From NCBI GenBank assembly GCA_964552375.1, contig CAZKFX010000001.1, forward strand, positions 3,929 to 67,928: DNA of 64,000 nt, read 5' to 3'. This document shows, piece by piece, positions 2,184-54,336 of the stretch (position 1 is the first letter of the stretch; every line of letters starts with the position of its first letter). The notes beneath the pieces were generated by a model, which did not search any database, had not been told where the DNA came from, and was given only the letters and a program-made list of their open reading frames with translations. The translations under genes and the position numbers were made by a program. Source of the stretch: an uncultured Candidatus Saccharibacteria bacterium. GTDB lineage: Bacteria > Patescibacteriota > Minisyncoccia > Minisyncoccales > CAZJYT01.

Positions 2184-2244
2184 AAGTTTAAAAAAAATTG
2201 GTGAGATTTGATTTTTTCTCTAAAAAAAGCTATTTTTATATAGT

Positions 2245-2634: not shown

Positions 2635-2636
2635 AA

Positions 2637-3053: not shown

Positions 3054-3059
3054 CATTTT

Positions 3060-3689
3060 ATGGCAAAAGCTCCCAGTCAGCAATTTTTAGAGATAAAACA
3101 AATTAGAGATGGAGTGATGATATTGAAAGACGGAAGTTTAAGAAAGATTTTGGCTGTTTCTTCTTTAAATTTGGCAGTGAAGTCTAAAGAAGAACAAGAA
3201 GCCATTTTTTATCAATTTCAAAATTTCTTAAATTCTTTAGATTTTTTCTGTCAAATAATTGTTCAATCTCAAAGATTAAATATTACAGGATATCTAGAAG
3301 AATTAGAAAAATTAGAACAAAAACAACCAAATGAACTTTTAAAATTCCAAACTAGAAATTATCGCCAGTTTATCCAAAAATTAGTAGCTACAGGAACGAT
3401 TATGAATAAAAATTTCTTTTTGGTAGTTCCCTTTTATATGTCAGAACTTAAAGAAGTAATTCCCTCAAAAAAGGCAGGCAAAGGAGAGATGGCAGAACTT
3501 AAATTTCAATTGGCAAAAAATCAACTTGAACAAAGAGCTGAATTTTTAATATTAGGTTTAAGGAGGTGTGGTTTAAATGCAGCTCCCCTAAATAGTGAGC
3601 AATTAATTGAGCTTTTGTGGAATTTTTATCATCCAAAAGAAGCAGAAATGGGATATTATCCTTCTATTCCTTCTGAAATAATAAAATAA
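3060..3689 (+). CDS. VirB4/TraC-family protein, N-terminal domain (separate ORF)
   Basis: IRDGVMILKDGSLRKILAVSSLNLAVKSKEEQEAIFYQFQNFLNSL resembles the N-terminal region of PrgJ/TcpF/VirB4 proteins; ends TAA at 3687-3689, 1 nt before the ATG of the ATPase ORF. Confidence 0.5.
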   Translation: MAKAPSQQFLEIKQIRDGVMILKDGSLRKILAVSSLNLAVKSKEEQEAIFYQFQNFLNSLDFFCQIIVQSQRLNITGYLEELEKLEQKQPNELLKFQTRNYRQFIQKLVATGTIMNKNFFLVVPFYMSELKEVIPSKKAGKGEMAELKFQLAKNQLEQRAEFLILGLRRCGLNAAPLNSEQLIELLWNFYHPKEAEMGYYPSIPSEIIK

Positions 3690-3690
3690 A

Positions 3691-5538: not shown

Positions 5539-6251
5539 TTTGTTTTGAAAATCAATTTTTGTTGAAAAATAGAAAAAAGAGTGCTTGATAACCAATACAA
5601 AGAAAGGGCGCAAGGCAGTTTTAGTAAAACTAAAAGAGTAAAAAGAGGAAAAAGAATAATCATTTCTTTTTGAAAAATATCTAAAATTTTACTCATTTGA
5701 TCTTTCTTTTGTTGAGAAAAAGAAAAAGGCTGCATTTTAAATTGAATAAACTGAAAAGCAGTTGCCAAAAAAGCTAAAAAGAAAGCTGGCCAATAATATT
5801 GTATTGTCTGAGGGTCTTTTTGAATAAAAAATGAAAGTGAAAGATTTATTTTTCCTAAAAATAATGGCTCAAAATCAAAAGATTGAACTCCTTCCCAAAA
5901 CAATCTAAACAAAGCTAAAAAAATAGGAATTTGCAAAATAGAAAAAAGACAACCTGAAAAAGGATTAAATTTTTCTTTTTTGTAAAGCTCTAAAATAGCT
6001 TTCATTTGTTTTTCTTTGTCTTCTTTGTGTTTTTCTTGAATTTCTTTTACTTTAGATTGAATTTGAGATAAACTCTTTTGAGATTTTATTGCCTTAAAAG
6101 AAAGAGGGGAAAGAATTAATTTAATTAAAATTGTAAAAATTAAAAGAGCTATTCCGAAATCTTTAATGGGGAGAATTTGATAAAGAAAAATTAAGGCCTT
6201 TAAAAGAGGAAAATAGAAAAAATCAATGATGGGATTGTGTAAAAAATTCAT
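5535..6251 (-). CDS. yidC: Membrane protein insertase YidC (short form)
   Basis: KEKFNPFSGCLFSILQIPIFLALF matches the YidC NP..GCLP.L.Q.PIF.AL signature; downstream of yidD-rnpA-rpmH. Confidence 0.85.
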   Translation of the reverse strand: MNFLHNPIIDFFYFPLLKALIFLYQILPIKDFGIALLIFTILIKLILSPLSFKAIKSQKSLSQIQSKVKEIQEKHKEDKEKQMKAILELYKKEKFNPFSGCLFSILQIPIFLALFRLFWEGVQSFDFEPLFLGKINLSLSFFIQKDPQTIQYYWPAFFLAFLATAFQFIQFKMQPFSFSQQKKDQMSKILDIFQKEMIILFPLFTLLVLLKLPCALSLYWLSSTLFSIFQQKLIFKTN

Positions 6252-6257
6252 AAAATT

Positions 6258-6467
6258 TTAAGGAAAATCTATTCCTCCAGGATGCCACAAAAAACATTTT
6301 TTTATTCTTTTTATAGTCTTTAAAACTCCTTTTAAAACCCCGTATTTTTTAATAGCTAAAAAAGAATATTCTGAACAAGAAGGAAAAAATCTACAGTTTT
6401 TCCCCAAAAAAGGAGAAATAAAAATTTGATAAAATCTAATTGCCTTCAAAATTAATTCTTGAAGCAT
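6258..6467 (-). CDS. yidD: Membrane protein insertion efficiency factor YidD
   Basis: CRFFPSCSEY ... HPGGIDFP signature. Confidence 0.85.
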   Translation of the reverse strand: MLQELILKAIRFYQIFISPFLGKNCRFFPSCSEYSFLAIKKYGVLKGVLKTIKRIKKCFLWHPGGIDFP

Positions 6468-6796
6468 TTTGTTTTTTGAAAGAGTTTTTGAATTGTCTTT
6501 TCAATCTCTCTAAATTTTAATTTTTCAATCCCAGGTAAAGCTATAAAAATTCCTTTCAGGCCTGGTTTTAATAAATCAAGTTTTAATCTTACTATCTCTG
6601 CCATTTGTCTTTTTAGTCTATTCCTTATTGTCGCTTTTTTTGAAACTTTTTTTGAAATTAAAAAAGCAAATTGACAAATACTATTTTTTGTTTCCAAAAA
6701 CCTAAAAAATAAAAAATCTTCTTTGGCCTTTTTTCCTTCTTTAAATATTCTCTCAAAATCTTTCCTCTTTGAGAGCCGGTTTTTTTTAGCCAACAT
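6452..6796 (-). CDS. rnpA: RNase P protein component
   Basis: N-terminal KKNRLSKRKDFERIFKEGKK; sits between rpmH and yidD. Confidence 0.8.
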   Translation of the reverse strand: MLAKKNRLSKRKDFERIFKEGKKAKEDFLFFRFLETKNSICQFAFLISKKVSKKATIRNRLKRQMAEIVRLKLDLLKPGLKGIFIALPGIEKLKFREIEKTIQKLFQKTKCFKN

Positions 6797-6802
6797 TAAA
6801 AT

Positions 6803-6937
6803 TTATACTGTAAGTCTCCATCTTCCCTTTGCTCTCCTCCTAGCCAAAATTCTCCTTCCAGCCTTTGTTTTCATTCTCTTTCTAAAACCATGGGTCCTCT
6901 TTCTCTTTTTTACTTTTGGACGATATGTGATTGACAT
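6803..6937 (-). CDS. rpmH: 50S ribosomal protein L34 (ORF-track start trimmed to the internal Met)
   Basis: [44 protein letters not shown] matches the L34 consensus; ATG at 6937-6935 (minus strand). Confidence 0.85.
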
Positions 6938-6960
6938 ATGTGAGATTATAACAAAAAAAG

Positions 6961-7001
6961 TTTTCCCCAACAATCCCCAAGTTTTCCCCAAAATATCCAC
7001 A
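6961..7001. promoter_or_regulatory. Cluster of DnaA-box-like 9-mers in the rpmH/dnaA divergent intergenic region (oriC/dnaA-promoter candidate)
   Basis: ATATCCACA at 6993-7001 (1 mismatch to TTATCCACA); TTTTCCCCA at 6961-6969 and 6982-6990. Confidence 0.3.
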
Positions 7002-7080
7002 AAAATAAAGAGGTAGGGGAGTTGTAGAGTTTTAAAATTAAAAGTATAATAGAAATTGAGATTTAAAATTACCTCTCATT

Positions 7081-8427
7081 ATGAATGAAAAAGAGCTCTG
7101 GGAAGCAGTTTTGGCCCAAATTCAATTGCAAATTTCCCAGGCCAATTTTACTACTTGGTTCAAAGGGACAAGAATTATTGCTAAAAAAGAAAATGAAGTT
7201 TTAATTTCTACTCCTAACACCTTTGTTAAAGAATGGTTAGAACAAAAATATAAACATCTCATTTTCAAAATCATAAGTGGTTTTGAGCCTAAAATAAAAG
7301 AAATTAAATTTTTAATTGGAAAACAAAATTTAAAACCCAGCTTTTGGCAAGAAAGAGAAGAACAAAAACAACAATTAGAATTTGAACAACTAAAGGTAGA
7401 TAGTGAAACAAATCTTAATCCAAGATACACTTTTAAAAACTTTGTAGTAGGTAGCTTTAATGAATTAGCTTTTGCAGCAAGTCAGGCGGTAATAAAAAAT
7501 CCAGGAGTTCTTTACAATCCATTATTCATTTATGGAGGCGTAGGATTAGGAAAAACTCATCTTTTAGAAGCAACAGGTAATGAAATTGTTAAATTGTATC
7601 CTAAAAAGAAGGTAAAATATGTTCCTGCTGAAAGATTCATTAGAGAAGTTGTTGAGGGAATTAAAAATCAAAAAATAGAAGATTTCAAATTAAAATATCA
7701 AAAAGTTGATGTCTTAATTATTGATGATGTTCAATTTTTAGCAGGGAAAGAAAAAACCCAAGAAGAATTTTTCCATTTGTTCAATAGTTTGTACCAAAAA
7801 AACAAACAAATTATTCTTTCCTCTGATAGACCTCCTAAAATAATTCCTTCTTTGACAGAAAGATTAAGATCAAGATTTGAAGGAGGAATGATTGGAGATA
7901 TTTCTTTACCAGATTTTGAAACAAGGGTAGCTATTTTAAAAGTGAAAGCTCAAGAAAAAAATGTAGAGTTTTCAGAAGAAGTTTACAATTTTATTGCTCA
8001 ATCCTTTAAAAGAAATATTAGAGATTTAGAAGGAGCTTTAAACAGATTAATTGTTTATTATAAATTAAACAACAAAGTTCCTGATTTATCTATTACAAAA
8101 AAACTTTTAAAGAAAGTAATTTTGGGAGCTAATCAATGGACTACCCCTAACAAAATTATCTCTACTGTTGCCGAGTTTTATGACCTAACCCAAAAAGATT
8201 TGTTAAGCTCTTCTAGAAAAAAAGAAATCACAAAACCTCGCCAAATCGCAATGTATCTTTTAAAAACCGAATTGAAGAGTTCTTATTTATCTATTGCTAG
8301 GAAATTGGGAGGAAAAGATCATTCAACAGTAATTTATGCTTGTGAAAAAATTGCAAAACAATTGGAAAAAGATAAAAAATTAGAAGAGGAAATTGAGTTG
8401 ATAAAACAAAGAATATATAGTGGATAA
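7081..8427 (+). CDS. dnaA: Chromosomal replication initiator DnaA
   Basis: AAA+ GGVGLGKTHLL; DnaA domain IV; divergent from rpmH-rnpA. Confidence 0.95.
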   Translation: MNEKELWEAVLAQIQLQISQANFTTWFKGTRIIAKKENEVLISTPNTFVKEWLEQKYKHLIFKIISGFEPKIKEIKFLIGKQNLKPSFWQEREEQKQQLEFEQLKVDSETNLNPRYTFKNFVVGSFNELAFAASQAVIKNPGVLYNPLFIYGGVGLGKTHLLEATGNEIVKLYPKKKVKYVPAERFIREVVEGIKNQKIEDFKLKYQKVDVLIIDDVQFLAGKEKTQEEFFHLFNSLYQKNKQIILSSDRPPKIIPSLTERLRSRFEGGMIGDISLPDFETRVAILKVKAQEKNVEFSEEVYNFIAQSFKRNIRDLEGALNRLIVYYKLNNKVPDLSITKKLLKKVILGANQWTTPNKIISTVAEFYDLTQKDLLSSSRKKEITKPRQIAMYLLKTELKSSYLSIARKLGGKDHSTVIYACEKIAKQLEKDKKLEEEIELIKQRIYSG

Positions 8428-8576
8428 ATTGAAGAAAATTTTTCTTTTTAAAAAATAATAAAGTTTTTTTAACACTTTTTTACAACTTTTCCTTTAATTT
8501 TCCACAAATTTTAAATTCAAAAAGATGATAAAATATATAATAACAATAAAATTTTTAAATTAAATTACAATTAAAC
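8428..8576. promoter_or_regulatory. AT-rich dnaA-downstream intergenic region with one DnaA-box-like motif (alternative oriC/DUE candidate)
   Basis: TTTTCCACA at 8498-8506; extremely AT-rich run aaatttttaaattaaattacaattaaac. Confidence 0.25.
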
Positions 8577-9002
8577 ATGGGGGGTGAAACTATTTTTCAA
8601 TTATTTTTAGCTACTATTTTAGGAGCTTTAATCGGTTTAGAAAGAGAATGGAAAAAGAAAGAAGCTGGAATTCAAACTTACAGTTTAGTAACTTTAGGAG
8701 CTTGTTTGTTTACTGTTTTGGTTTTTTCTTTTTCTTTAAATAATCCTTTAATAAAGGTTGATATTTCCAGAGTAATCCAGGCTGTGGCTGTTGGAATGGG
8801 TTTTATTGGAGCTGGAACTATTATTTTTTACCAAGATAAGATAAAAGGTTTAACTACGGCTGCAGGATTATGGACAAGTTCAGGAATTGGAATTAGTATT
8901 GGAGCAAAATACTATTTATTAGGAATTGTAAGTACAGGTATAGTTTTGTTAATTTTTACTGTTTTTGGAGTTTTAGAAAGAAAAATAGTAAAAAGTGAAT
9001 AG
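8577..9002 (+). CDS. MgtC/SapB-family membrane protein
   Basis: ILGALIGLEREWKKKEAGIQTYSLVTLGACLF is the MgtC-family signature. Confidence 0.7.
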   Translation: MGGETIFQLFLATILGALIGLEREWKKKEAGIQTYSLVTLGACLFTVLVFSFSLNNPLIKVDISRVIQAVAVGMGFIGAGTIIFYQDKIKGLTTAAGLWTSSGIGISIGAKYYLLGIVSTGIVLLIFTVFGVLERKIVKSE

Positions 9003-23192: not shown

Positions 23193-23747
23193 ATGAGAAA
23201 AATTTTTCTCTTTCTCTTTATTTTGAAAATTTTATTTTTTCCTTTAATTTGTCAGGGAAAATTGAGGTATTATGAGGCATGTGAGAGTGTCTCAAGTGGA
23301 GTTTGTATGACTCCTACTTATACCGTTTGTTATGATGGTTTGGTGCCATGCGGAAAAGATGTTTGGTATGCTCAAGGATCTCATCCAGATTGTCCTACTT
23401 CCTCGCTTCCAATGAGTGTTACTACTACTCATTGTCAGCTTTGTCATTTTTTTATTATGTTTAATGGCGCAGTTGATTTTCTCATTTGGGAAATTGTTTT
23501 ACCTTTGGCGGTTTTAATGCTAATTGTAGGAGGAATTTTATATATTTTAGCAATTTTAGAGTTTGTTCCTGGAGGACCCCAGACTGTAAATCAGGCAAAA
23601 CAAGTAATTAGTGCTGTTTTCATTGGTTTATTTATTGTCTTTTCTGCCTGGTTTTTGGTCAATTTATTTTTCACCTTAATTGGAGTAGCTGATTGGACAG
23701 GATTAAAAGAAGGCTGGTTTAAAATTGATTGTCCAGTAGAACTATGA
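23193..23747 (+). CDS. Secreted Cys-rich domain with C-terminal 2-TM 'GG..V..AK..I' hairpin module (paralogue of 47592 and 48642 proteins)
   Basis: Signal-like N-terminus; about 12 Cys; LMLIVGGILYILAILEFVPGGPQTVNQAKQVISAVFIGLFIVF. Confidence 0.4.
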   Translation: MRKIFLFLFILKILFFPLICQGKLRYYEACESVSSGVCMTPTYTVCYDGLVPCGKDVWYAQGSHPDCPTSSLPMSVTTTHCQLCHFFIMFNGAVDFLIWEIVLPLAVLMLIVGGILYILAILEFVPGGPQTVNQAKQVISAVFIGLFIVFSAWFLVNLFFTLIGVADWTGLKEGWFKIDCPVEL

Positions 23748-36747: not shown

Positions 36748-37851
36748 ATGGCAAAAATTACTCTTTCTCTTATTAAAGCAGATATTGGTTCTGTTGGAGG
36801 ACATCTTAAACCAAGTGAAAAATTGTTAGACGCAGTAAAAAAGTATATAAAACAAAAAGGTAAAGATTTTATAATTGATTATTATGTTGGTTTTACTGGC
36901 GATGATGTTGCTATTTTAACAACTCATAGATTAGGAAAAAGAAATCCTAAAGTTCACAAACTTTGCTGGAATGCCTTTTTAGCTGGAACCAAGGTAGCTA
37001 AATCTCAGGGATTATATGGAGCAGGACAAGATTTGTTAGTTTCTGCTTTTTCTGGAAATGTTAAGGGAATGGGGCCCCAAGTAGCTGAAATGGAATTTGA
37101 AGAAAGACCCTCAGAACCATTTTTAATATTCTGCGCTGATAAAACCGAACCCGGAGCCTTTAATTTACCTGTTTATTTAGCTTTTACAGATCCGATGCAT
37201 TGTGCTGGTTTGATTTTATCTCCAAATTTAAAAAAGGGATTTAAATTTGTGATTATGGATGTTAGCTATACTAAAGGAGACAGAATAATTGAATTGGTAA
37301 GCCCAGAAGAAATTTATGATATTGCTTGTTTGTTAAGAGATACGGGGAGATTTGTAATTGAATCTGTTTGGTCAAGAGCAACTGGAGAGCAAGCTGTAAT
37401 AGCAAGCACTACTAGATTGCACAATATTGCTGGAAAATATGTAGGAAAAGACGATCCGGTAATGATTGTAAGAACTCAAAAAGATTTTCCAGCTACTGGT
37501 GAAATTCTTTCTCCATATACAATTGGGCATTTTGTTGCTGGGTTTATGAGAGGATCTCACAATGGACCATTAATGCCAGTAAAGAAGAATTCCCATATTT
37601 CTTTTTTTGATGGTCCTCCAGTGGTTTCTTGTTTGGCTTTTTCTGTAAAAAATGGAAAATTGACAGAACCAGTAGATTGTTTTGACCACCCCTATTGGGA
37701 TTGGGTAAGAGATAGAATTTCTCAAAAAGCTCAAGAAATTAGAAGACAGGGATTTTTTGGCAATGCCATGCTTCCAATGTCAGAATTAGAATATACTGGA
37801 GTAATGGAAAGCTTAAAAAAATTAGAAAAGAAATTCTTCATTAGAAAATAA
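36748..37851 (+). CDS. fbp: Archaeal-type bifunctional fructose-1,6-bisphosphate aldolase/phosphatase (FBPase class V)
   Basis: N-terminal MAKITLSLIKADIGSVGGH matches the class V IKADIGS..GH start; about 367 aa. Confidence 0.75.
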   Translation: MAKITLSLIKADIGSVGGHLKPSEKLLDAVKKYIKQKGKDFIIDYYVGFTGDDVAILTTHRLGKRNPKVHKLCWNAFLAGTKVAKSQGLYGAGQDLLVSAFSGNVKGMGPQVAEMEFEERPSEPFLIFCADKTEPGAFNLPVYLAFTDPMHCAGLILSPNLKKGFKFVIMDVSYTKGDRIIELVSPEEIYDIACLLRDTGRFVIESVWSRATGEQAVIASTTRLHNIAGKYVGKDDPVMIVRTQKDFPATGEILSPYTIGHFVAGFMRGSHNGPLMPVKKNSHISFFDGPPVVSCLAFSVKNGKLTEPVDCFDHPYWDWVRDRISQKAQEIRRQGFFGNAMLPMSELEYTGVMESLKKLEKKFFIRK

Positions 37852-44020: not shown

Positions 44021-44467
44021 ATGGTATCAATTGAGAAAATTAAAAAATTAAGAAAAGAAACCCAGCTTTCTCTTTTGGAATGTAAAAACGCTTTAATAAA
44101 AGCCAATGGTGATTTAGAAAAAGCAAAAGAAATTTTAAGAAAATGGGGCAAAGAAATAGCTGACAAAAAAAGAGAAAGAGAAACTAGAGAGGGAATAATT
44201 GAAAGCTATGTTCATGCTAACAAAAAAATTGGTGTTTTGTTAGAATTAAATTGTGAAAGTGATTTTGTTGCCAAAAATTCAGAATTCCAAAGGTTAGCCC
44301 ATGAGTTAGCTTTACAAATTGCAGCTGTTGACCCAAATGAAATTCCTTTGTTAGAACAAAACTGGATAAAAGACGAAAAAAAGAAAATAAAAGAACTAAT
44401 TGAAGAATATATTGCTAAATTGGGTGAAAATATTGTTTTGAGAAGGTTTGTAAGATATGAAATTTGA
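44021..44467 (+). CDS. tsf: Elongation factor Ts (short form)
   Basis: [40 protein letters not shown]-like N-terminus; [26 protein letters not shown]. Confidence 0.85.
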
Positions 44468-44780
44468 GATTTCAGAAATAATTGCTCTTTTTGGATTGAT
44501 TTTTGGTTTTTCAGGAATGGCAATTATAATTTTAAGGAAAATTCCTGTTTTGGTTGAGTTGCCACAAATTCCTTCAAAGAAACCGGTTTTAAAACCAAAG
44601 ATTTCAAAAAAAATTTCTTTTGAGAGGGTTTTAGAAAAAGCATTGAGAAAAATAAGGATTCAGCTTTTAAAGTTAGAAAGAATTCTTTTTTTGAAAATCC
44701 AGCAGATAAAAAGAAATTCAGAAAAAGAAAGAGAAAATATTAAATATTGGGAAAAGATTAAAAGGGAATTGAAAAAATAA
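44457..44780 (+). CDS. Hypothetical single-TM protein
   Basis: One N-terminal TM helix then a K/R-rich tail; overlaps the tsf stop. Confidence 0.3.
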
Positions 44781-44783
44781 AAT

Positions 44784-44856
44784 GCCGTCCTAGCTCAATT
44801 GGCAGAGCAGTGGTTTTGTAAACCACCGGTTCGGGGTTCGAGTCCCCGGGACGGCT
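44784..44856 (+). tRNA. tRNA-Thr (anticodon UGU), no encoded CCA
   Basis: GCCGTCC/GGACGGC acceptor; anticodon loop TTTGTAA; GGTTCGAGTCC T-arm. Confidence 0.85.
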
Positions 44857-44863
44857 CAATTTT

Positions 44864-45706
44864 TTAAGTTTTATTTTTTTGTTTTCTTTTTCTATAAAGA
44901 ACTAAAATCACAAACAAAAGTACAAAAATTAATATTCCCAAAATTATTGCTCCAATTTTCAAAAAAACCATTATTTTTGGTTTTCTTTCTTTTGGCGAAA
45001 GACAATCTAAATCTTCATTTGCAAGACAATCTGGATCACAAATTCCATCTATTGCTCTATCACAATAGTTATCTTTTCCTCCAGAAGGACAATCTTGAGG
45101 GCAATTTTTATAATTTTCTCCTTTTTCACATTTTCCATTAGAGCAAACAGCTACTTTTTGGCAGTCTGGATCTTCTTTCTTAATACAATCTGGATCACAT
45201 ATTCCGTCTTTTACTTTATCACAATATCCATCAGCGCCCCCAGAAGGACAGTCTTTTGGACAGTTTTTATAATTTTCACCCAGGACACATTTTCCGTCTC
45301 CGCAAACTCCTTCTTTTAATTCCAATTGCATTAATTTTGTCACCTCAATTTCTCTGTTGTCAGGCAAAATACAGACAGCACATTTTGGAGAAAGCAAATG
45401 AGCACATTTTTTTCTATCTTTAATGGTTTTCATTTCATAACCCTTTTTTGTACAAAAACTATATTCTTTTCCACACTCTCCCCATAAGAACTTCCAGGCA
45501 ACACAACTTTTTTTATTGGGAAAAACACAAATACCATATTGATTTCCTTTTTCGTCGGTTTTAATTTGATAATCATACCCCAATTTATAACAATAAAGAG
45601 CAGCTGGATTTTTTAGAGCTAAAACTTTAGAGAAAATGAAAATTCCCACAAAAAGGAATAAAAAAATGGAAAAATTTTTTATTTTTTTCATATTCATAAT
45701 ATTCAT
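44864..45706 (-). CDS. Cys-rich tandem-repeat surface protein with C-terminal TM anchor
   Basis: Signal peptide; two about 48-aa repeats CxxGKCxxGENYKNCPxDCPSGGxDxYCDxxxDGICDPDCxxxEDxDC; C-terminal hydrophobic helix + KRKQKNKT. Confidence 0.5.
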   Translation of the reverse strand: MNIMNMKKIKNFSIFLFLFVGIFIFSKVLALKNPAALYCYKLGYDYQIKTDEKGNQYGICVFPNKKSCVAWKFLWGECGKEYSFCTKKGYEMKTIKDRKKCAHLLSPKCAVCILPDNREIEVTKLMQLELKEGVCGDGKCVLGENYKNCPKDCPSGGADGYCDKVKDGICDPDCIKKEDPDCQKVAVCSNGKCEKGENYKNCPQDCPSGGKDNYCDRAIDGICDPDCLANEDLDCLSPKERKPKIMVFLKIGAIILGILIFVLLFVILVLYRKRKQKNKT

Positions 45707-45726
45707 AAAAAATTTAATTTTTTATT

Positions 45727-47595
45727 TTAAGGCGGAGGAATTATTCCTTCTCCATAATCTCCTGACATATGAGTACCCAAAAGACAAGTGTCAAAATCAA
45801 AACTTTCATATCCATCAAAGCAAGGATCACCAGGAATTCCTCCCCAGCTATTTTTTAAAATCCAATATCTTTTAACATTATTATACCCTACCAATACCAT
45901 TGCATGATTGGCACCTGGCAGACATTTGTAAATATCACACCCATCATCATCCAAACTTCCTGTGGTTCCCCCTCCAACACCAACCTTTACATACAAGGGC
46001 CCATATTTAATTAAACCATATTGAAGTTCCCCTCTGTTGTTTAAAATTTTTGGGGTGACACTATCAGTATTGGTTATTTTCCATAGCTCAATTGGACTAG
46101 CATCATCACAAGTTGCTGGACAAGGAGAATCAGTTTGCAAATAACCATAGCAATCTTCTGTTGGCACACCATTTGTCTTAATAAAATTGAAAGCACAATT
46201 TCCACCATTACAATCTCCAATAGGACAACAATCTGAAATTAAATACTGTTCAGACAAATCAGGCGTTAAAGAGCTGTCTCCTTTTTCTATTTTATATTTT
46301 GCTTCCATACTTCCTATAGTTGCAAAAGCCCAACAAGCTCCACAAGCTCCTTGATTTTTTACTGGGGTCATCCAATTTTCTCCATTTACATTTCTCCAGT
46401 CCCAAAATTGAGGAGGAATGTGAATAGTGATAGTGTCTGTAGCTACTACTCCTGAGGCGTCAGTTACCTTTAATGTAATAATATGGTCTATTACTGTTGA
46501 AGTAGCAACTCCAGTTAAATCATTTTTAACAAAACTACTAGAAGCGCCAATAACTCCATCTATATTAGAAGTCCATTCTATAGTATAAGGAAGAGTACCT
46601 CCTGTAATTAAGGCTTGAAAATTTATTGGGTCTCCTTGGGCAAAAGCAGTATCATCAGGAGGAGAGGAAATAGTCGCAGTTAAAAAAGGAGGATTAACCT
46701 TTACCTGAGCAGAAGCAACAGCTGTTTTTCCACAATTGTCAGTTACGCGCAAAAGAGGATGATAAGTGCCAGGAATATTGTAAATATAAGTGGTGATTCC
46801 AGAAATGAAGCTTTGCCAGTCAAAAATACCATCTCCTTCAAAATCCCATTCATATTTCACTATTTGACCTTGTCCTGGGGGTGGATCAAAAGAATAGGTG
46901 CTTCCATCAAAATAAACTGTTTCACCTGCTACTACAACAACACTTAGAGCAGTTGGAGAAGGATTTTTTCCTACTCTTGGTTTGGGGACAGGAGGAAGGT
47001 CTTGAATGCAATCTGTTCCTGTCCAACAATAACCTGAATCACAGGCATAACAATTTTCTCCTGCTCCACAACAAACACCTCCAGTGATATGAGAATTGGA
47101 AGGAGAGAAAGTTAGACATCCTGGTATGGCACTACAGGTTGGAGTGCAACCAGAGGAGGTTATTTTAAAATTAGCCACATTTTCTGTTTCGGTGGCAAAT
47201 CCCAAAATATCTTTTGCTTTAATATCAATATAATAATTACCAACAGGAGCACCACTTGAGTCCCAACTATTTCCATATTTTCCATCATTAGCTAAATCAT
47301 CGTTATGAGATCCATCATCATAAAGCTGAACAGTTGCTATATTTGTTTCGTCTGGATTTTGTAAAAAAGCAACAACTGAACTGACTCCAGAGATATCTGT
47401 TACTTTAGCATTAATAATAAAAGTAGCTCCTTGGTCTGCGCTTGAAGGTGAAACACTTACATCAGAAACTGTTGGATAAGGTTGATTTGCTATTTCCAAA
47501 GAAGGTTTTTGAGAAAAAGAAATTTTTATACAAAAAATTCCAAAAATGATTAAAATTAAAAATAACAAAGGAAAAAATTTACTTTTTTTCATCAT
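45727..47595 (-). CDS. Secreted multidomain papain-like (C1) cysteine peptidase with N-terminal beta-sandwich, Cys-rich and PKD-like domains
   Basis: NQGACGACWAFAT (active-site Cys), NHAMVLVGY (His), ILKNSWG (Asn); PKD-like YEWDFEGDG; signal peptide. Confidence 0.7.
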   Translation of the reverse strand: MMKKSKFFPLLFLILIIFGIFCIKISFSQKPSLEIANQPYPTVSDVSVSPSSADQGATFIINAKVTDISGVSSVVAFLQNPDETNIATVQLYDDGSHNDDLANDGKYGNSWDSSGAPVGNYYIDIKAKDILGFATETENVANFKITSSGCTPTCSAIPGCLTFSPSNSHITGGVCCGAGENCYACDSGYCWTGTDCIQDLPPVPKPRVGKNPSPTALSVVVVAGETVYFDGSTYSFDPPPGQGQIVKYEWDFEGDGIFDWQSFISGITTYIYNIPGTYHPLLRVTDNCGKTAVASAQVKVNPPFLTATISSPPDDTAFAQGDPINFQALITGGTLPYTIEWTSNIDGVIGASSSFVKNDLTGVATSTVIDHIITLKVTDASGVVATDTITIHIPPQFWDWRNVNGENWMTPVKNQGACGACWAFATIGSMEAKYKIEKGDSSLTPDLSEQYLISDCCPIGDCNGGNCAFNFIKTNGVPTEDCYGYLQTDSPCPATCDDASPIELWKITNTDSVTPKILNNRGELQYGLIKYGPLYVKVGVGGGTTGSLDDDGCDIYKCLPGANHAMVLVGYNNVKRYWILKNSWGGIPGDPCFDGYESFDFDTCLLGTHMSGDYGEGIIPPP

Positions 47596-48503
47596 ATATT
47601 ATCTAATTTACTACAATTTCCCCAATTATCACAAGCTTTAATATCTACATAATAGGGGCCTTCAGGAAAAGAAGCAGAATTCCAGACATTTCCAAAAATA
47701 CTGTCAGAACTTGAGACATCACTGTGGAGTCCATCGTCAAACAATTCTATTATTTCAAGAACAGTATTGTCAGGTCTCTGCAAAAGAGCATAAGCAGACG
47801 CAATAGGGTTGGCATCGGTTATTTTGACTCTAATTTCAAACAATGTTCCTTGAGGTGCAGAAATAGGAGTAATGTGAGTATTTGTAATATTAGGAGGAGT
47901 AGTGTCTATAAAACCAAAACCGAGAGCTACAAAACATGCAGGACATCCTACTGCTGACCCACAGTCTACATGGGTTTCTCCACAATCTTTTACACCATCT
48001 GAACAATGGTTACAATTTTGGCAATACAAAGAAGAAGGATTGCTGACATCTTCAAAAATCCAGACACCCCCATTACAATAAAGCTGAAGGGATAAATCAC
48101 AATCTCCAGGAGTACAAGTTAATCCAGCAGTAGTCATTGTGCCAGTAGAAGGAGCGACACCAAACAATTTACCACTTATGTTAATTACTACCTTTATAGA
48201 AGAAACAATAAAAATTCCTATTGTAGCCACCAGTATTAATTCTTTTGCTTTTTCAACTCTTTCTGGATTTCCACCAGACATTAAAAGAAAAAAAGCAGCA
48301 CCAATTAAAAGAAAAGTTCCAACAATTACTCCTACCCAAAACAAAAAATTAGTAAAAGTAGAGACCAATTTTTGCCAAATAGGATAAGCACTTGGCCTTT
48401 TTATTACTATAGAAAAGGCTGAAAGAAAAAAGGGCAAAAATAGTAAAAATAACAAAAAATAAAGAAAAAATCTTTTTGAGAAGGTTTTAAAAATGGAAAG
48501 CAT
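47592..48503 (-). CDS. Membrane protein: N-terminal TM + 2-TM 'GG..V..AK..I' module, C-terminal beta-sandwich domain homologous to the N-terminal domain of the 45727 protease
   Basis: FLLIGAAFFLLMSGGNPERVEKAKELILVATIGIFIV; the C-terminal ISAPQGTLFEIRVKITD...LFDDGLHSD...GNVWNS...YYVDIKACD aligns with the protease's N-terminal domain. Confidence 0.45.
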   Translation of the reverse strand: MLSIFKTFSKRFFLYFLLFLLFLPFFLSAFSIVIKRPSAYPIWQKLVSTFTNFLFWVGVIVGTFLLIGAAFFLLMSGGNPERVEKAKELILVATIGIFIVSSIKVVINISGKLFGVAPSTGTMTTAGLTCTPGDCDLSLQLYCNGGVWIFEDVSNPSSLYCQNCNHCSDGVKDCGETHVDCGSAVGCPACFVALGFGFIDTTPPNITNTHITPISAPQGTLFEIRVKITDANPIASAYALLQRPDNTVLEIIELFDDGLHSDVSSSDSIFGNVWNSASFPEGPYYVDIKACDNWGNCSKLDNI

Positions 48504-48641
48504 AAAATTATTTTTTAAATTTTATCATTATCTTGGAAAGATTGCAAGAATAATTGATGTTGACAAAATTGAAAACATTTTTTATTTTTTAAATATAAAA
48601 AAGGTCGTAGGAAAAGGTCGCAAAATAAAAATTAAAAAGAT

Positions 48642-49172
48642 ATGAAAAAAGGAATTGCTATTTTAGGAACAATTTGTCTTTTGGGAGTTTTAATTTTGCC
48701 AGCAATAAGTGAAGCTGCAAGGACAACGACAAACTGTTGTCAGATTAGAAGGACATTTTCTTTTAATGGAAAGACTTGGTTGTCTGGAAGATGTTATGGA
48801 GAAATAGGAATAGAATATGGTACGACAGCTGTTACTACTACTGCTACAGGATGTGAAACACCAGGAGGAGTTGTACTATGTGAAGCCGCACCAGGACTTG
48901 GAGTGGAGCCAGGTAAAAATGTAGAACAAAGACCTGACTGGGGTGCTGGATGTATGCTAAATAGTGTCTATCGGATTTCAGACTTTATTTTCATGATTTT
49001 GATTGTAGTGGCAGTAATTATTGGTTTGGCAGGAGGTTATAATATTTTGACTGCTGGAGGTGATGCTGAAAAAGTGAACAAAGGAAGAGACTTGATATTG
49101 TATGCTATTATTGGAATGGTAGTAGCTTTCTTTGCAAGAGCTATTCCTTCAATTGTATCTCTGTTGATATAA
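48642..49172 (+). CDS. Secreted Cys/Thr-rich domain with C-terminal 2-TM 'GG..V..AK..I' hairpin module (pilin-like candidate)
   Basis: Signal peptide ..AISEAA; IVVAVIIGLAGGYNILTAGGDAEKVNKGRDLILYAIIGMVVAFF. Confidence 0.4.
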   Translation: MKKGIAILGTICLLGVLILPAISEAARTTTNCCQIRRTFSFNGKTWLSGRCYGEIGIEYGTTAVTTTATGCETPGGVVLCEAAPGLGVEPGKNVEQRPDWGAGCMLNSVYRISDFIFMILIVVAVIIGLAGGYNILTAGGDAEKVNKGRDLILYAIIGMVVAFFARAIPSIVSLLI

Positions 49173-49214
49173 AAGTTAGAAAGAATCGAGGGTGGAAGGG
49201 GTGGGGCTTCCCTT

Positions 49215-50675
49215 TTGATGTTACAAAAGGGAAAAAAAGGTTTTTTTGAATTAAATAAAAATTTGATAATTTTTTTCTTTTTGGGAACATTAGCAGGTTC
49301 CCTTTTTTCTTTTATTTTAATTTCTAAAGCAGAATTTAAAGGGAAAATTGACTATTTTGGAAAAATTGAAATTTTAACTGAAGTTTCACAGTCTATCAAA
49401 TTAGACAATAAAAAATTTAATGAAAAGATTGAGACAAAAACAAAAAAAATTTTTAGTGGCGAAACTGCTTTTTTGGGTGCTCATTATATTAAAAACGAAA
49501 GTGTTCTTCCTAAAAGAATAAAAATAATTACAAATGATAATCCAGAAAATTTAAATTTTTTACCAGTTGAAATGGTTTGGCAGGCAGTTCAAATTACTAC
49601 TGGAAAAACCTACAAAAGAAACCCAAGTGTTTTAAAAGATAGCAGAGGAAATTTGTGGTTATTTTTCTCTCAAGATACATATTTTGGTCAGGAAGGCAAA
49701 GGATGTGATGAAGAGGGCGTCAATTGTGAAAATCATCAATATGAGGGTTATTACATAATTTCTCAAGATCAAGGAATTTCTTTTTCTCAACCTTTCAAAT
49801 TTCCAGAGATTGAAAATTTTCATCCAAAAATAATTTCTCCAATTGAAGATGAAAAGGGAAGAATTTGGGTTTTTCTTTCAGATAGTAAAGGAGAAAAAGG
49901 AATTTATTATTTTATTATCAACAATGGAAAATTCAGTGAGCCAAAAAAATTGGAAATTGTCAAAAATAATGTAGATTTTGTCTCTGTGGCAAAGAAAGAA
50001 AATTTAATTTTTGTAATTTATGAAGATAAAGAAGGTTCAAAAATAGTTTGGACAAAAGATTTTGGTGAAAGCTGGGAAGGGCCTTTTTTAATAGACAAAA
50101 GAGCTTCAAGGGCAAGAGGAATTTTTGCAAAAGATGGAAAATTAAAAATTGTTTGGCAAAACAAAGAAACAAAAAAGGGAATTTATTTGACAGATTGCAA
50201 TTTTGAGAACTCTTTTTTAAATTGTTCCTCCTCTTTGGTTTATCTGGTAGAAGGGTTTGCCACAGAAGATAAAGAGCCCTTTTTATTGCAAGATTCTTTT
50301 TCTAATTTTTGGTTATTTTGGACAGTAAAAGAAGGAAAAGAAAAAGGTAAAATTACTCAATGGATAAATTTTGCTACCTCTTCAGATTTAAAAAAATTTT
50401 CTTTACCAAAAATTTTAATGAAAAGAGAAAATAGATGGAATTTTTCTCCTTTTGCCATAGAAAATAAAAATCAAATCTATCTCTTTTTTGCCTCAGAAAA
50501 CGATAGATATTCCTCTGAAGGAAGGGTAAATTCTAATATTTGGATGGCAAAATTGGGAAAAGAGATTGAAATTGAAATTTTACCAAAAGAGAAAATTGGT
50601 TTTGATGTCGCTTTTATTTTTAGAGAAAATTTAGCACAAAATGATTATTTAACAATTGTTGAAATTAAAAAATAA
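49215..50675 (+). CDS. Membrane-anchored BNR/Asp-box repeat protein (sialidase-like beta-propeller candidate)
   Basis: Asp-boxes SQDQGISF and TKDFGESW; recurring W.F(F/L)S / W.FW strands; N-terminal TM helix. Confidence 0.55.
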   Translation: MMLQKGKKGFFELNKNLIIFFFLGTLAGSLFSFILISKAEFKGKIDYFGKIEILTEVSQSIKLDNKKFNEKIETKTKKIFSGETAFLGAHYIKNESVLPKRIKIITNDNPENLNFLPVEMVWQAVQITTGKTYKRNPSVLKDSRGNLWLFFSQDTYFGQEGKGCDEEGVNCENHQYEGYYIISQDQGISFSQPFKFPEIENFHPKIISPIEDEKGRIWVFLSDSKGEKGIYYFIINNGKFSEPKKLEIVKNNVDFVSVAKKENLIFVIYEDKEGSKIVWTKDFGESWEGPFLIDKRASRARGIFAKDGKLKIVWQNKETKKGIYLTDCNFENSFLNCSSSLVYLVEGFATEDKEPFLLQDSFSNFWLFWTVKEGKEKGKITQWINFATSSDLKKFSLPKILMKRENRWNFSPFAIENKNQIYLFFASENDRYSSEGRVNSNIWMAKLGKEIEIEILPKEKIGFDVAFIFRENLAQNDYLTIVEIKK

Positions 50676-50679
50676 TTTT

Positions 50680-51939
50680 TTAAAAAATTTGATTTTTTAT
50701 TAAATCTTCAAAACTCTCTCTCTTTCTTATTAGCTTTACCTTTCCATTTAAAATTGCAATTTCAGCTGGTCTTAATCTTGAGTTAAATTGAGAAGACATT
50801 GAAAAACCATAAGCTCCGGCATTAAAAATTGCCAGAATATCTCCTTCTTTCAAAACAGGCAATTTTCTTAATTCTTTTTTGCTGGTATTAAAAACATCCC
50901 CTCCTTCACACAAATTTCCTCCGATTAAATACTTTTTAAATTTTTTGGATTTAACTTTCAAAGAAAGTAAAATTTTATGAAAGGCTCCATAAATAAAAGG
51001 TCTAGCAAAAATATTGAATCCTGCATCTAAAATACAAACATCAATTGGTTTTTCTCCTTGACTAAGATGGACTACTTTTGTTAACAGCACCCCAGCATTA
51101 CCAATTATAAATCTTCCAGGCTCAATTCTTGCCTCAAAAACTCCAGCCTCCTTTGTTGCTCTTTTTATTATTTTGGCATAAGAGGTTAATTCTTTTTGAT
51201 TAAAATCTCTTTCTTTAGGAGAATGGGCAATTCCAATTCCTCCACCAAAATCAAGGAAATTTAAATTTGTTATTTTTTTTACTCTTTTGGCAACATCTGT
51301 CATTACTCTGGCAATTTTTTCAAAAACCAAAAGATCTTTTGCTAACCAGTTAGAACCAGCATGGCAATGCAAACCCAAAACCTCCAAACCTTCTTTTTTT
51401 GCCAATTTTACAGCTTCTATTGCTTTCGGGGGAATTATTCCAAATTTACTGTATTTTCCTCCTGTTTTTATATGGGAATGGGCTCCAATTTCAATTAGAG
51501 GATTTATTCTTATTCCAATTTGAAAAATTTTTTTCTTTTTAGAAATCTTTTTAATTTGGGAAAAAGAATCTGCATTAATGAAAATTGATTTTTTTGCTAA
51601 ATAATCCAAATCTTTATCAGTTAAAGCAGGACAAGTTAACATTATTTCTCTTTCTGAAAAACCTGCCTTTAAAGCAGTTTCTACCTCAAAAGGAGAAGCT
51701 GTATCTACTCCATCTACTTTATTTTTTAAAAACTTAAGCAAAGCTAAAGATGAATTTGCTTTTTGGGCATAATAAATTTTAATATTGGCTTTAGCCTTTT
51801 TGATAGCTTTTTTTAACTTTTCAATATTTTGAGCAACCTTCTCAAAGTCATAAACATAAAGAGGAGTCCCAAATTCTTTGGCTAATTCCTCCGCTTTTAT
51901 GTTTCCAAAATATAATTGATTATTTTTAATTTTAATCAT
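50680..51939 (-). CDS. lysA: Diaminopimelate decarboxylase (fold-III PLP decarboxylase)
   Basis: YYAQKANSS (PLP Lys), HCHAGSN, GGGIGIAH, CEGGDVF. Confidence 0.8.
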   Translation of the reverse strand: MIKIKNNQLYFGNIKAEELAKEFGTPLYVYDFEKVAQNIEKLKKAIKKAKANIKIYYAQKANSSLALLKFLKNKVDGVDTASPFEVETALKAGFSEREIMLTCPALTDKDLDYLAKKSIFINADSFSQIKKISKKKKIFQIGIRINPLIEIGAHSHIKTGGKYSKFGIIPPKAIEAVKLAKKEGLEVLGLHCHAGSNWLAKDLLVFEKIARVMTDVAKRVKKITNLNFLDFGGGIGIAHSPKERDFNQKELTSYAKIIKRATKEAGVFEARIEPGRFIIGNAGVLLTKVVHLSQGEKPIDVCILDAGFNIFARPFIYGAFHKILLSLKVKSKKFKKYLIGGNLCEGGDVFNTSKKELRKLPVLKEGDILAIFNAGAYGFSMSSQFNSRLRPAEIAILNGKVKLIRKRESFEDLIKNQIF

Positions 51940-52801
51940 TTTTTAAATGTCTTATTAAAGCCCTTTGGATAGCCTTAATTGGAGCCTTTCTCTTTGTGTA
52001 ATATTCAAATTGAGCAACTCCTTGTTCTAAAAACATTTCAATTCCAGAGACAATTTTTGCTCCTTTTTTTTCTGCTTCTTTTAGCATTTTTGTTTTGAGA
52101 GGAGAATAAATAACATCCATTACAATTTGTTTTTTTGAAAAGACTTCTTTTGGAACTGGAGAAATATTTTGGTAAGGAGGCATTCCCAAAGGAGTGGCAT
52201 TAATAATAATATCAAAATCTTTCAATTCCATTAAGTTAGAAAAGTCTGAATATTCCAGATTAAATTTTTTAGCTAATTTTTTTGCTTCATTTTTGTCTTT
52301 GTTAAAAATTTTTATTTTCCCTCCTTCTTTTTTTAATCCATACACTATTGCTCTTGCTGCTCCCCCAGCTCCAATTATTCCAATTTTTTTTCCTTTGATT
52401 TTTGTTCTTTTTTTAATTGGTTTTAAACCTCCCAACCAGTCAGTATTGTAACCTTTCAAAATTCCATTTTCATTGACTATTGTATTTACCGCTCCAATTT
52501 CTTTTGCTACCTTGTCTATTTCATCTAAATATTTCATTACCTTTACTTTATGAGGCATAGTACAACTTACTCCTCTTATTCCCATTATTCTGATAGCCTT
52601 TATTGCCCACTTTAAATCTTTCAATTTTACTCTTGCTCCCAAAAATACAAATTCGTCTTCAATTCCCAAGACTTTGTAACCTGTATTGTGTAATAAAGGA
52701 GAAAGTGAATGCTCTATTGGATCTCCAATTACCAAACAAATTTTTGTTTTAGCTGAAATCATAATTTTTATAAATTCCAACAATATCTGAAAGAACAGCA
52801 C
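51932..52801 (-). CDS. aroE: Shikimate dehydrogenase
   Basis: IGDPIEHSLSPLLHN, GYNTDW, IIGAGGAARAIVYGL. Confidence 0.85.
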   Translation of the reverse strand: MLFFQILLEFIKIMISAKTKICLVIGDPIEHSLSPLLHNTGYKVLGIEDEFVFLGARVKLKDLKWAIKAIRIMGIRGVSCTMPHKVKVMKYLDEIDKVAKEIGAVNTIVNENGILKGYNTDWLGGLKPIKKRTKIKGKKIGIIGAGGAARAIVYGLKKEGGKIKIFNKDKNEAKKLAKKFNLEYSDFSNLMELKDFDIIINATPLGMPPYQNISPVPKEVFSKKQIVMDVIYSPLKTKMLKEAEKKGAKIVSGIEMFLEQGVAQFEYYTKRKAPIKAIQRALIRHLKND

Positions 52802-53759
52802 TTGCGGTTTCTATAGGGCCTGCTCCTTTTCCTAAAATGGTAATTTCATCTGCCAATTCTGTTTTTATTTTCACTACATTTAAAGTATCATCTACATTTA
52901 AAGGATCATTTTTAGGGATTAATTGAGGTTCTACTTTCAAAAGCCCATCTTTGTTTACCTTTCCTATTAGTTTTACTGCATACCCTGATTTTTCTGCTAA
53001 TCTTAAAAATTCAGAGGTTATTTCTCTAATTCCCTTTATTTTTACATCTTTCAAAGTGGCACAAATCCCAAAAACTGCATTAGCCAAAATGACAAGTTTT
53101 ATTGCGGTATCAATTCCATCAATGTCTTTTGAAGGATCTGTTTCAGCAATTCCCATTTGTTGAGCTTTTTTTAAAGCTTGCTCTAAAGACAATCTTTCTT
53201 TTGTCATTTTGGTCAAAATATAATTAGAGGTGCCATTAAGAATTCCTTTTATAGAAATAATTTCTCTCTCTTGCAACTCATTTTTAGCTAAAGAAATTAT
53301 TGGCAAAGCTCCTCCTACTGTTGCTCCAAATTTTAGCTTTTTTTGTTTTTCTTTTGCTAATTTCATCAATTTCTTGTAAGCCAAAGCTATAGGACCTTTA
53401 TTTGAAGTAACTACATTTTTTCCAGTTTCCAGAGCTGAAATTATATGGCTCAATCCAGGTTCTCCATTCTCAATATTTGTGGGAGTAGCCTCTACCAAAA
53501 CCTCGTAATTTAAACTTTTTATTATTTTCAGGGTATCTTTTTCATCTATTCTTTCTCCTCTTTTGAAAGCTTCTATTTCTTTTGTCGTTAATCCATTTTC
53601 ATTTATTATTAATCCGTTTTTATTTCCAATTCCAACAATTTTTAAAAAAATTCCATATTTTTTATATATTTTTTCTTTTTTCCTCTCTATTACCTCTCTT
53701 GTGCCACTTCCTACATTTCCAAAACCAATTAATAAAATTCTTACTATTTTTTCTTTCAT
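52749..53759 (-). CDS. hom: Homoserine dehydrogenase
   Basis: VRILLIGFGNVGSG; LNGTSNYILT; HSD catalytic domain; 53-nt overlap with aroE. Confidence 0.8.
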   Translation of the reverse strand: MKEKIVRILLIGFGNVGSGTREVIERKKEKIYKKYGIFLKIVGIGNKNGLIINENGLTTKEIEAFKRGERIDEKDTLKIIKSLNYEVLVEATPTNIENGEPGLSHIISALETGKNVVTSNKGPIALAYKKLMKLAKEKQKKLKFGATVGGALPIISLAKNELQEREIISIKGILNGTSNYILTKMTKERLSLEQALKKAQQMGIAETDPSKDIDGIDTAIKLVILANAVFGICATLKDVKIKGIREITSEFLRLAEKSGYAVKLIGKVNKDGLLKVEPQLIPKNDPLNVDDTLNVVKIKTELADEITILGKGAGPIETASAVLSDIVGIYKNYDFS

Positions 53760-53760
53760 T

Positions 53761-54336
53761 TTAGTTTGATTTTAAAATTGAAAGAATTTTTTTTAAAATT
53801 TCTTTTGGGGTTTGATTGGAAATTTCTAAAATAAAATCTGCCCTTTTTTCATAAAGTGGTAGTCTTTGAGAATAAATTTCCATTTCTTTTTCAAGAGAGC
53901 TTTTTTTGCCAGTTAATGGGGGTCTCCATTCTTTGTTATATTTTTCATTTTCTTTTTTTAACCTCTCTTTCAATATTTCTTTTTTCACTTTTAAAAAAAT
54001 TATAATTTTTTCTGGTAGCTTTTTAACTAAATTAAAATTTTTTTCTCCAAAGGTCAAGTTCTTTGAAAATTTTACATCATTTACAAACAATCCTCCTCCC
54101 GTAGCGACCACAATTTTTTCTTTTTTAATTATTTCTTTTAAAACATTGTGTTCCAAAAGACGAAATTTAAACCAGTCTTTACCATCTTGAGTAATTTTAG
54201 CAATTGACTTTTTAGCTTTTTTTACTATCAATTCATCCATTTCTACAAATTCATAATTTAATTTTTTTGCTAAAATTTTTCCCAAGGTTGTTTTTCCAGC
54301 TCCCCTAAATCCAGTTAAAAAAATCTTTTTTTTCAT
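53761..54336 (-). CDS. aroK: Shikimate kinase
   Basis: IFLTGFRGAGKTTLGKILAKKL P-loop, EMDELI, VVATGGGLF. Confidence 0.75.
   Translation of the reverse strand: MKKKIFLTGFRGAGKTTLGKILAKKLNYEFVEMDELIVKKAKKSIAKITQDGKDWFKFRLLEHNVLKEIIKKEKIVVATGGGLFVNDVKFSKNLTFGEKNFNLVKKLPEKIIIFLKVKKEILKERLKKENEKYNKEWRPPLTGKKSSLEKEMEIYSQRLPLYEKRADFILEISNQTPKEILKKILSILKSN

Follow-up and report, generated by a model that had tools for sequence, protein, structure and literature searches.

The locus between the genes tRNA-Thr and lysA in a 64,000-nt stretch of contig CAZKFX010000001.1 (a bacterial contig of ~29% GC overall; the whole stretch is referred to as the window) raises the question of whether its five consecutive genes, here numbered g1 to g5 in map order, form an acquired island of adhesion or host-interaction genes, as proposed in the initial annotation, or a unit of another kind. 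Five open reading frames (ORFs) were found between tRNA-Thr and lysA as described, all encoding extracytoplasmic or membrane-anchored and non-housekeeping products, and the observation of five cell-surface genes at the locus is confirmed. The segment nevertheless splits three ways, into the operon g3-g2-g1, a recurrent but variable pilin gene, g4, and an unrelated propeller gene, g5, with tRNA-Thr and g5 being incidental neighbours of the operon. The reading that we favour, at a probability of about 0.6, is that the g3-g2-g1 operon would build a surface-tethered protease assembly in this Patescibacterium, a member of the candidate phyla radiation (CPR).

The first description of the single products holds; g1 is a Cys-rich repeat protein (8.6% Cys, two 53-aa Cys repeats), g2 a multidomain papain-like protease (Peptidase_C1 at 123 bits together with choice-of-anchor-X (ancX) and PKD domains) and g3 a membrane protein whose ancX domain matches that of g2. 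The pilin-like character of g4, with its two transmembrane (TM) segments, also stands, in the sense of a hairpin pilin of the VirB2-type type IV secretion system (T4SS) and not of a type IV pilin, and g5 is a membrane-anchored BNR/sialidase-like propeller with a BNR_2 score (25.6 bits) below the cut-off (31.4 bits) and two Asp-box-like motifs, SQDQGISF at 183 and TKDFGESW at 280.

The genes g3, g2 and g1 are read from the same strand (48503 to 44864) with an overlap of 4 nt between g3 and g2 and a gap of 20 nt between g2 and g1. When surveying contigs of g2 homologues together with scans of GTDB genomes and of metagenomes and a hidden Markov model (HMM) survey of our own on 170 fetched loci, the order hairpin gene, C1 protease gene, DUF333 gene on one strand was found at ~11 distinct Patescibacteria loci (the window, L002, L003, L004/5/92, L006, L007/8, L009, L010, L041, L051 and L056). 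A hairpin gene is located ahead of the protease gene in every complete Patescibacteria cassette; L031, which holds the protease and DUF333 genes and no hairpin gene, is cut by the contig end. The surroundings differ: the window has the cassette between tsf/tRNA-Thr and lysA, and L003, L004, L005 and L006 (34–48% protein identity to g2) have it between PolX and NUDIX-MGMT-L20-L35-IF3. Epimerase and Beta_propel genes are the neighbours in L002 and in L007, and deoC/LOG/HDAC/M16/mnmA/argS lie upstream in L009 (59% identity for the protease and 68% for the DUF333 protein), while in L010, from a Moraniibacteriota metagenome-assembled genome (MAG), the whole cassette (7917–14459) is flanked by ftsA and ftsZ, with all genes on one strand. 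A conserved order within varied flanks indicates that the trio is a selected unit that is passed on vertically inside a lineage and has changed its site from one lineage to another, and judged by gene order and spacing g3-g2-g1 is one conserved, predicted operon.

The protease g2 starts with a signal peptide followed by ancX, a Cys-rich segment, PKD and the C-terminal Peptidase_C1 domain, in which the catalytic set is intact (Gln415, Cys421 in CGACWAF, His564 in NHAMVLVGY and Asn582 in LKNSWG), and the modelled catalytic domain of a homologue resembles cathepsins S, K, X and C. No match to the I29 propeptide (PF08246) was found in g2, and the PKD region directly abuts the mature-like start FWDWRNVNG.

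A possible substitute for the propeptide is suggested by g1, a type-I membrane protein with a signal peptide and a C-terminal TM segment. Its match to PF03891, a 47-residue Cys-containing domain, is followed by a second DUF333-like half, and the double module ends in the conserved motif EIEVTKLMxL. Residues 28–131 of g1 show 35–47% identity to the N-terminal ~105 residues of proteins in which DUF333 and C1 are fused, with a shared tail (E/S)-V-T-x-L-M-x-L, and g1 and g2 are thus the two halves of a DUF333-C1 architecture that is widespread in its fused form. Among the protease homologues there are 26 such fusion proteins, all from other phyla, and the module is N-terminal in 24 of them. Counted over the fetched C1-bearing loci, DUF333 accompanies the protease in 74 of 138, being fused in 48 and encoded by an adjacent gene in 26, and the lineages concerned are Chloroflexota, Ignavibacteria, Zixibacteria, Acidobacteriota, DPANN archaea and Methanosarcinales. 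Since the module is fused to the same protease elsewhere, g1 most likely binds the catalytic domain, a physical contact predicted here from the fusions. The split DUF333 partners carry a C-terminal TM segment and a basic tail in 13 of 14 cases, the remaining one (L009) being cut by the contig end, and this constant membrane anchoring argues for retention of the enzyme at the surface. The partner in L010 ends, unlike g1, in an LPKTAG-like sortase signal (PF00746, 25.4 bits).

Structure prediction with AlphaFold2 gave two tandem alpha+beta units for the DUF333 module of g1 alone, with a predicted local distance difference test score (pLDDT) of 88.6. For the natural fusion P0063 (419 residues) the module reached a pLDDT above 90 and the whole chain a predicted template modelling score (pTM) of 0.80, a value that, judged by the pTM formula, would be hard to reach without a confident relative placement of DUF333 and C1 in the model.

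The link between g3 and the protease is seen in domain content. The protein g3 consists of a signal peptide, the hairpin, a Cys-rich linker and ancX, with three hydrophobic segments in all, and its ancX shows 39–43% identity to that of g2. Where hairpin partners and proteases were compared, ancX occurred in both at 8 of 8 loci and in neither at 3 of 3, and PKD repeats are mirrored in the same way in L003–L005. Two Patescibacteria lineages (L007/P0067 and L041) even have hairpin and C1 joined in one protein by direct fusion. The ancX copies of g2 type and g3 type form mostly separate old clades; a recent duplication at the locus was considered as the source of the shared domain and rejected on account of the 39% identity and the separate clades.

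Kyte-Doolittle analysis of g3 and g4 shows a signal peptide and two hydrophobic helices with short basic polar loops, SGGNPERVEKAK and AGGDAEKVNKGR. Orthologous partners of g3 exceed the Pfam threshold for PF18895 (38.9 bits in L010), and in g4 the hairpin follows a signal peptide and a Cys-containing N-terminal ectodomain of ~75 aa. A profile of the hairpin run against a library of representatives matched 57,013 representative clusters at E <= 1e-3, and the top matches include single-hairpin proteins of 184–743 aa in which the hairpin occupies precisely one terminus and a large Cys-rich ectodomain the opposite one; a search for homologues of the g3 hairpin (residues 1–125) by word index gave no matches.

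Taken together, these features suggest the following assembly. The protease g2, which belongs to the papain family, has a complete Gln-Cys-His-Asn set and lacks a classical propeptide, would be exported by Sec. The double DUF333 of g1 would correspond to the N-terminal module covalently fused to the protease in other lineages, here made as a separate protein, and may either dock the enzyme at the membrane or act in the manner of a prodomain, as a chaperone or inhibitor keeping the enzyme harmless at the producer's membrane. The hairpin of g3 would anchor an outward-facing ancX mirroring the N-terminal ancX of the protease, giving a second tether or a common ligand-binding head, depending on whether the g3 domain pairs with the protease ancX, a physical contact suggested by the matching domains, or shares a ligand with it. 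With g4 the assembly would gain another hairpin protein of this class. The protease would in this way be retained at the surface, and its target may be envelope proteins of a host or prey, or it may scavenge peptides.

Several observations weigh against such an assembly. There are 64 C1 loci without DUF333, many of them being truncated contigs or belonging to other C1 clades, and no relative of the DUF333 module was found in the PDB by sequence or by Foldseek (best E = 0.7), so that no function can be borrowed for it. The co-occurrence counts of ancX (8/8 and 3/3) are not phylogenetically independent, as they represent ~4 lineages with the domain and 2–3 without. The hairpin of g3 itself scores 24.3 bits against PF18895, below the cut-off of 26.6, and its profile matched none of the solved VirB2/TraA structures but only spurious designed helical proteins. 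Finally, 4 of the 14 cassette proteases (L003, L004, L006 and L009, the last being the closest relative) have Ser as the nucleophile where Cys is expected, within the motifs DASWAF and NVSTLF and with Gln, His and Asn kept, and proteolysis may therefore not be the conserved activity; these forms would be either Ser-nucleophile variants or non-catalytic binding proteins. Comparable Ser-for-Cys cases within family C1 are silicatein and SERA. The same replacement is present in the homologues P0002, P0009, P0011, P0012, P0014, P0016 and P0021.

The main competing explanation takes g3 and g4 to be genuine VirB2 pilins polymerised by the T4SS on the oriC side of the window, with the protease either displayed on the pilus, by pairing of ancX or in other species by direct fusion, or acting on pilin precursors by trimming off their ectodomains. 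Genes of VirB4, PrgI-like and TraC-N-like type are present in the same window, the topology of VirB2 with both termini outside fits terminal fusions, pilin-C1 fusions exist and a PrgB-type adhesin is not known for the Patescibacteria T4SS, whose loci bear essential arrays of VirB2-like pilins (PMC10633639, PMC12102498). However, 42 kb separate the cassette from virB4 and the cassettes of other genomes are not found beside T4SS genes, a domain of 200–3400 aa on every subunit (as in L071) would be hard to fit into a packed helical pilus, proteins with many hairpins suggest that the hairpin is also a plain membrane module, and DUF333-C1 pairs in many phyla do without a pilin; we regard this explanation as unlikely. 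Less credible still is a plain secreted protease feeding an auxotroph, with DUF333 as a folding prodomain in trans and the pilins as unrelated neighbours. It would agree with the many biosynthetic pathways missing in Patescibacteria (PMC10633639) and with the self-sufficiency of the DUF333-C1 pair in many non-CPR organisms, but leaves without explanation the hairpin gene before the protease in every complete Patescibacteria cassette, its two fusions to the enzyme and the mirrored ancX and PKD domains, and the membrane anchoring of the DUF333 partner again argues for surface retention.

The view that the genes are a variable island for adhesion or host interaction, gained by horizontal transfer and inserted at tRNA-Thr, has the adjoining tRNA and the surface-protein cargo in its favour, as well as the different chromosomal sites of the cassette in each lineage, showing that it has moved over evolutionary time, and the upstream flank of the closest relative (L009, 59% identity for the protease), which differs from that of the window. 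The segment had also been noted as somewhat GC-richer, and GC is indeed raised at 45–49 kb, 0.33–0.37 compared with about 0.29 elsewhere, although for g2, g3 and g4 only. When GC and codon usage were compared as the initial annotation had suggested, the excess of these three genes was confined to codon positions 1 and 2 (GC2 z = +2.8 to +4.2), while the GC of third positions (GC3) in g1–g5 is typical, 0.180–0.205 against 0.191 ± 0.023 in the 62 other ORFs of the window (z = -0.5 to +0.6). The GC-raised genes are enriched in Gly, Ala, Pro and Cys and depleted in Lys, Ile, Phe, Asn and Tyr, and an excess found only at GC1 and GC2 with native GC3 indicates a signal of protein composition and not foreign DNA. 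No integrase or recombinase domain was found in the genes at 44457–51939 and no long repeat flanks the segment; the 3' end of tRNA-Thr (23 nt, allowing <=3 mismatches) occurs once in the 64 kb, in agreement with the earlier failure to see a flanking direct repeat, and the tRNA ends 6 bp from the stop codon of g1. None of 12 related cassette loci is adjacent to a tRNA, the synteny of four contigs in one lineage at 34–48% protein identity to g2 points to vertical inheritance, and g5 is not linked to the cassette elsewhere. A scan of genome contigs with lysA alone, using low-complexity peptide patterns, did not confirm a relative. The idea of a foreign five-gene island associated with the tRNA is therefore largely refuted, only g3-g2-g1 travelling together, and we consider it very improbable; of the proposed host-interaction or adhesion content, a role at the surface or towards a host is still plausible. 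Conservation and synteny in relatives together with typical composition had been named as evidence that would speak against an island, and of these the composition and the order of the core genes agree, whereas the place in the chromosome varies from one lineage to the next. The case calls for caution in genome scanning, as high GC beside a tRNA can come purely from ectodomains rich in Gly, Ala, Pro and Cys.

Table 1. Position of the genes and sequence features discussed, numbered from the first nucleotide of the window.
Feature	Position	Strand	Remarks
PrgI/VirB3-like gene	2637-3053	+	PF12666 1.7e-11, PF19044 4.7e-30 and PF11130 1.5e-5, listed jointly for the cluster 2637-5538
TraC-N-like gene	3060-3689	+	T4SS cluster
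VirB4 gene	3691-5538	+	T4SS cluster, ~42 kb from the cassette
dnaA	7081-8427
Third VirB2-like pilin gene	23193-23747	+	PF18895 2.4e-10, 40.8 bits; 184 aa
tRNA-Thr(UGU)	44784-44857	+	convergent with g1
g1	44864-45706	-	280 aa, 8.6% Cys; DUF333, Cys repeats, C-terminal TM
g1, C-terminal TM segment	44897-44974	-	followed by basic tail
g1, 2 x 53-aa Cys repeats	44999-45316	-	36/53 identical
g1, double DUF333-like module	45314-45622	-	PF03891 58.6 bits, cut-off 25
g2	45727-47595	-	622 aa; ancX, Cys-rich segment, PKD, Peptidase_C1
g2, Peptidase_C1	45730-46416	-	PF00112 123.2 bits, cut-off 20.7; residues 395-590
g2, PKD region	46420-46983	-	PKD 34-35 bits
g2, ancX	47179-47487	-	NF041940 31 bits
g3	47592-48503	-	303 aa; T4SS_pilin hairpin, Cys-rich linker, ancX
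g3, C-terminal ancX ectodomain	47595-47906	-	NF041940 24.7 bits, just under cut-off 25
g3, T4SS_pilin two-helix hairpin	48153-48395	-	PF18895 24.3 bits, E=3.4e-5
Divergent intergenic region g3/g4	48504-48641	.	one promoter-like site per strand
g4	48642-49172	+	176 aa; Cys-containing ectodomain, C-terminal T4SS_pilin hairpin
g4, C-terminal hairpin	48936-49169	+	PF18895 31.8 bits, above 26.6
g5	49215-50675	+	486 aa; N-terminal TM segment, weak BNR_2 propeller match
lysA	50680-51939	-	TIGR01048 357 bits, cut-off 298

In the searchable literature no description was found of the operon, of fusions of the hairpin to ectodomains or to the protease, or of the DUF333-C1 partnership. The VirB2-like pilins of Patescibacteria, C1 peptidases and DUF333, as a domain of unknown function, are already known, and in the literature searched it is their combination that is new.

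Compared with papain-family zymogens, i.e. the procathepsins with their N-terminal I29 and cathepsin C with its exclusion domain, the C1 domain and the Gln-Cys-His-Asn set are shared, and fused relatives of g2 likewise have an N-terminal accessory module directly upstream of the catalytic domain. The differences are that I29 is missing, that the module is a disulfide-rich double DUF333 without a relative in the PDB and that in the window it is the product of a separate gene, anchored in the membrane. Some C1 homologues (P0103 and P0110) carry a fused chagasin-type inhibitor domain, PF09394, and a protease fused to its own inhibitor does accordingly occur in this group.

In the staphopain-staphostatin operons of Staphylococcus aureus (scpAB and sspBC) the gene of a clan-CA cysteine protease is followed by that of a small protease-binding partner, the staphostatins being cytoplasmic beta-barrel inhibitors. 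The cassette is similar in that the protease gene is immediately followed, within one operon, by a dedicated partner gene, but the DUF333 partner, a protein rich in Cys, is tethered to the membrane outside the cytoplasm, and inhibition by it is putative. Another comparison is offered by lactococcal PrtP, a multidomain protease retained at the surface of a monoderm, with its gene located beside that of the membrane lipoprotein maturase PrtM, which is needed for its maturation. PrtP belongs to the subtilisin-like serine proteases and is attached through a sortase signal, and PrtM is a PrsA-type foldase; the likeness to the cassette lies in a surface-retained protease encoded beside a membrane-anchored accessory protein, and there is no sequence relationship.

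The pairing of DUF333 with C1 gives a widespread domain of unknown function a testable role in bacteria and archaea. A further and tentative proposal has two parts that are put forward jointly: that the double DUF333 module may represent an unrecognised class of prodomain or inhibitor, acting in trans or in cis, for a large prokaryotic C1 clade, and that the VirB2-like hairpin may be a general module for display of enzymes and adhesin-like domains on the surface or on a T4SS pilus, the cassette protease attacking the envelope of the host. We hold this combined proposal to be doubtful. The one part, if true, would provide the first function for DUF333, and the other would account for the "missing adhesins/effectors" of the T4SS in Patescibacteria. 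These bacteria spend their lives attached to host cells, and a conserved operon in which a VirB2-type hairpin is tied to a protease through its gene order, its shared domains and direct fusions is a testable candidate for the cargo of such hairpins.

When analysing the beginning of the window (60–8427), the T4SS cluster was found to adjoin yidC-yidD-rnpA-rpmH-dnaA, together with genes for a 707-aa TM/coiled-coil protein and a 129-aa ORF, which indicates that the window spans the region of the replication origin. A T4SS beside yidC-rnpA-rpmH-dnaA is the arrangement described for Patescibacteria (PMC12102498). Since the cluster is cut by the start of the window, VirB6 and any pilin array may lie upstream, and the T4SS of the window could be the machinery acting on VirB2-like proteins. 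The T4SS and VirB2-like pilins of Patescibacteria are essential in S. epibionticum, the one species tested (PMC10633639), and adhesins were not detected in a survey of the Patescibacteria T4SS, for which neither an adhesin nor an effector is known.

With the VirB2-like arrays (Southlakia epibionticum SEML1_0006-0019; Quinonero-Coronel et al. 2025) g4 and, at a score just under the cut-off, g3 share T4SS_pilin (PF18895) within the same phylum, and both share a signal peptide, a two-helix hairpin with a short basic loop and a genome having a T4SS on the dnaA side. However, the array pilins are of ~100–130 aa and placed beside virB4, while the hairpin of the operon carries a Cys-rich/ancX ectodomain of 100–190 aa, lies 42 kb away and is encoded together with a protease and a DUF333 protein; with 303 and 176 aa, g3 and g4 do not match a small stand-alone pilin. 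The third pilin gene of the window encodes a Cys-rich N-terminal ectodomain and a C-terminal hairpin and is solitary, between ksgA and the gene of a BadF/BcrA-type ATPase, and VirB2-like genes are scattered across the genome.

A second pilin gene of variable sequence flanks the cassette in L002, L006, L007, L041, L051 and L056, with the hairpin at the C-terminus or with no ectodomain, and this recurrence makes g4 plausible as an accessory member; it is probably an accessory gene of the operon. Sequence homologues of g4 or g5 were not found in any cassette locus (tblastn, E <= 1e-8). The g3/g4 intergenic region contains, as matches to the consensus, TTGACA-17-TATTTT (48560–48588) on the plus strand and TTGCAA-17-TAAAAT with TG (48547–48519) on the minus strand, but as the scan for promoters and terminators gave counts no higher than in shuffled sequences these sites lend weak support to a divergent promoter pair.

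Only four homologues of g5 were found in 5.8 billion clusters. Contigs were fetched for three of them (59–62% identity), where the gene is located beside tRNA synthetase or DUF116 genes and neither the cassette nor lysA is present. The gene was considered as a member of the cassette and rejected, having no homologue in cassette loci and its homologues being placed elsewhere in relatives; it is also unrelated to the PF09826 propellers near the L002 and L007 cassettes.

Some proteins contain VirB2-like hairpins in tandem, from 3 to 17 per polypeptide (P0133, P0147, P0148 and P0166), and these rank first in the profile search. P0147 (287 aa, 3 hairpins) and P0133 (606 aa, 7 hairpins) are both encoded by continuous ORFs, while the 17 hairpins of P0166 (1775 aa) are known from the search table only. 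In L071 a gene at 1274–11599 encodes a protein of 3442 aa with a VirB2-like hairpin at its start and ancX inside, followed by the gene of a 536-aa ancX protein, with ybeY-ftsA-ftsZ a few kb away.

Between tsf and tRNA-Thr, at 44457–44780, there is an ORF of 107 aa, which overlaps the end of tsf, stops 3 bp before the tRNA and gave no family match; its product has a single TM segment at the N-terminus and a tail rich in Lys. A search with PADLOC of all five proteins g1–g5 gave no match to anti-phage defence. Elsewhere in the window an archaeal-type fructose-bisphosphate (FBP) aldolase/phosphatase (PF01950) is encoded at 36748–37851, and lysA is part of a group at 50680–54336 with shikimate dehydrogenase-like, homoserine dehydrogenase and shikimate kinase-like genes, together indicating a biosynthetic capacity above that usual in Patescibacteria.

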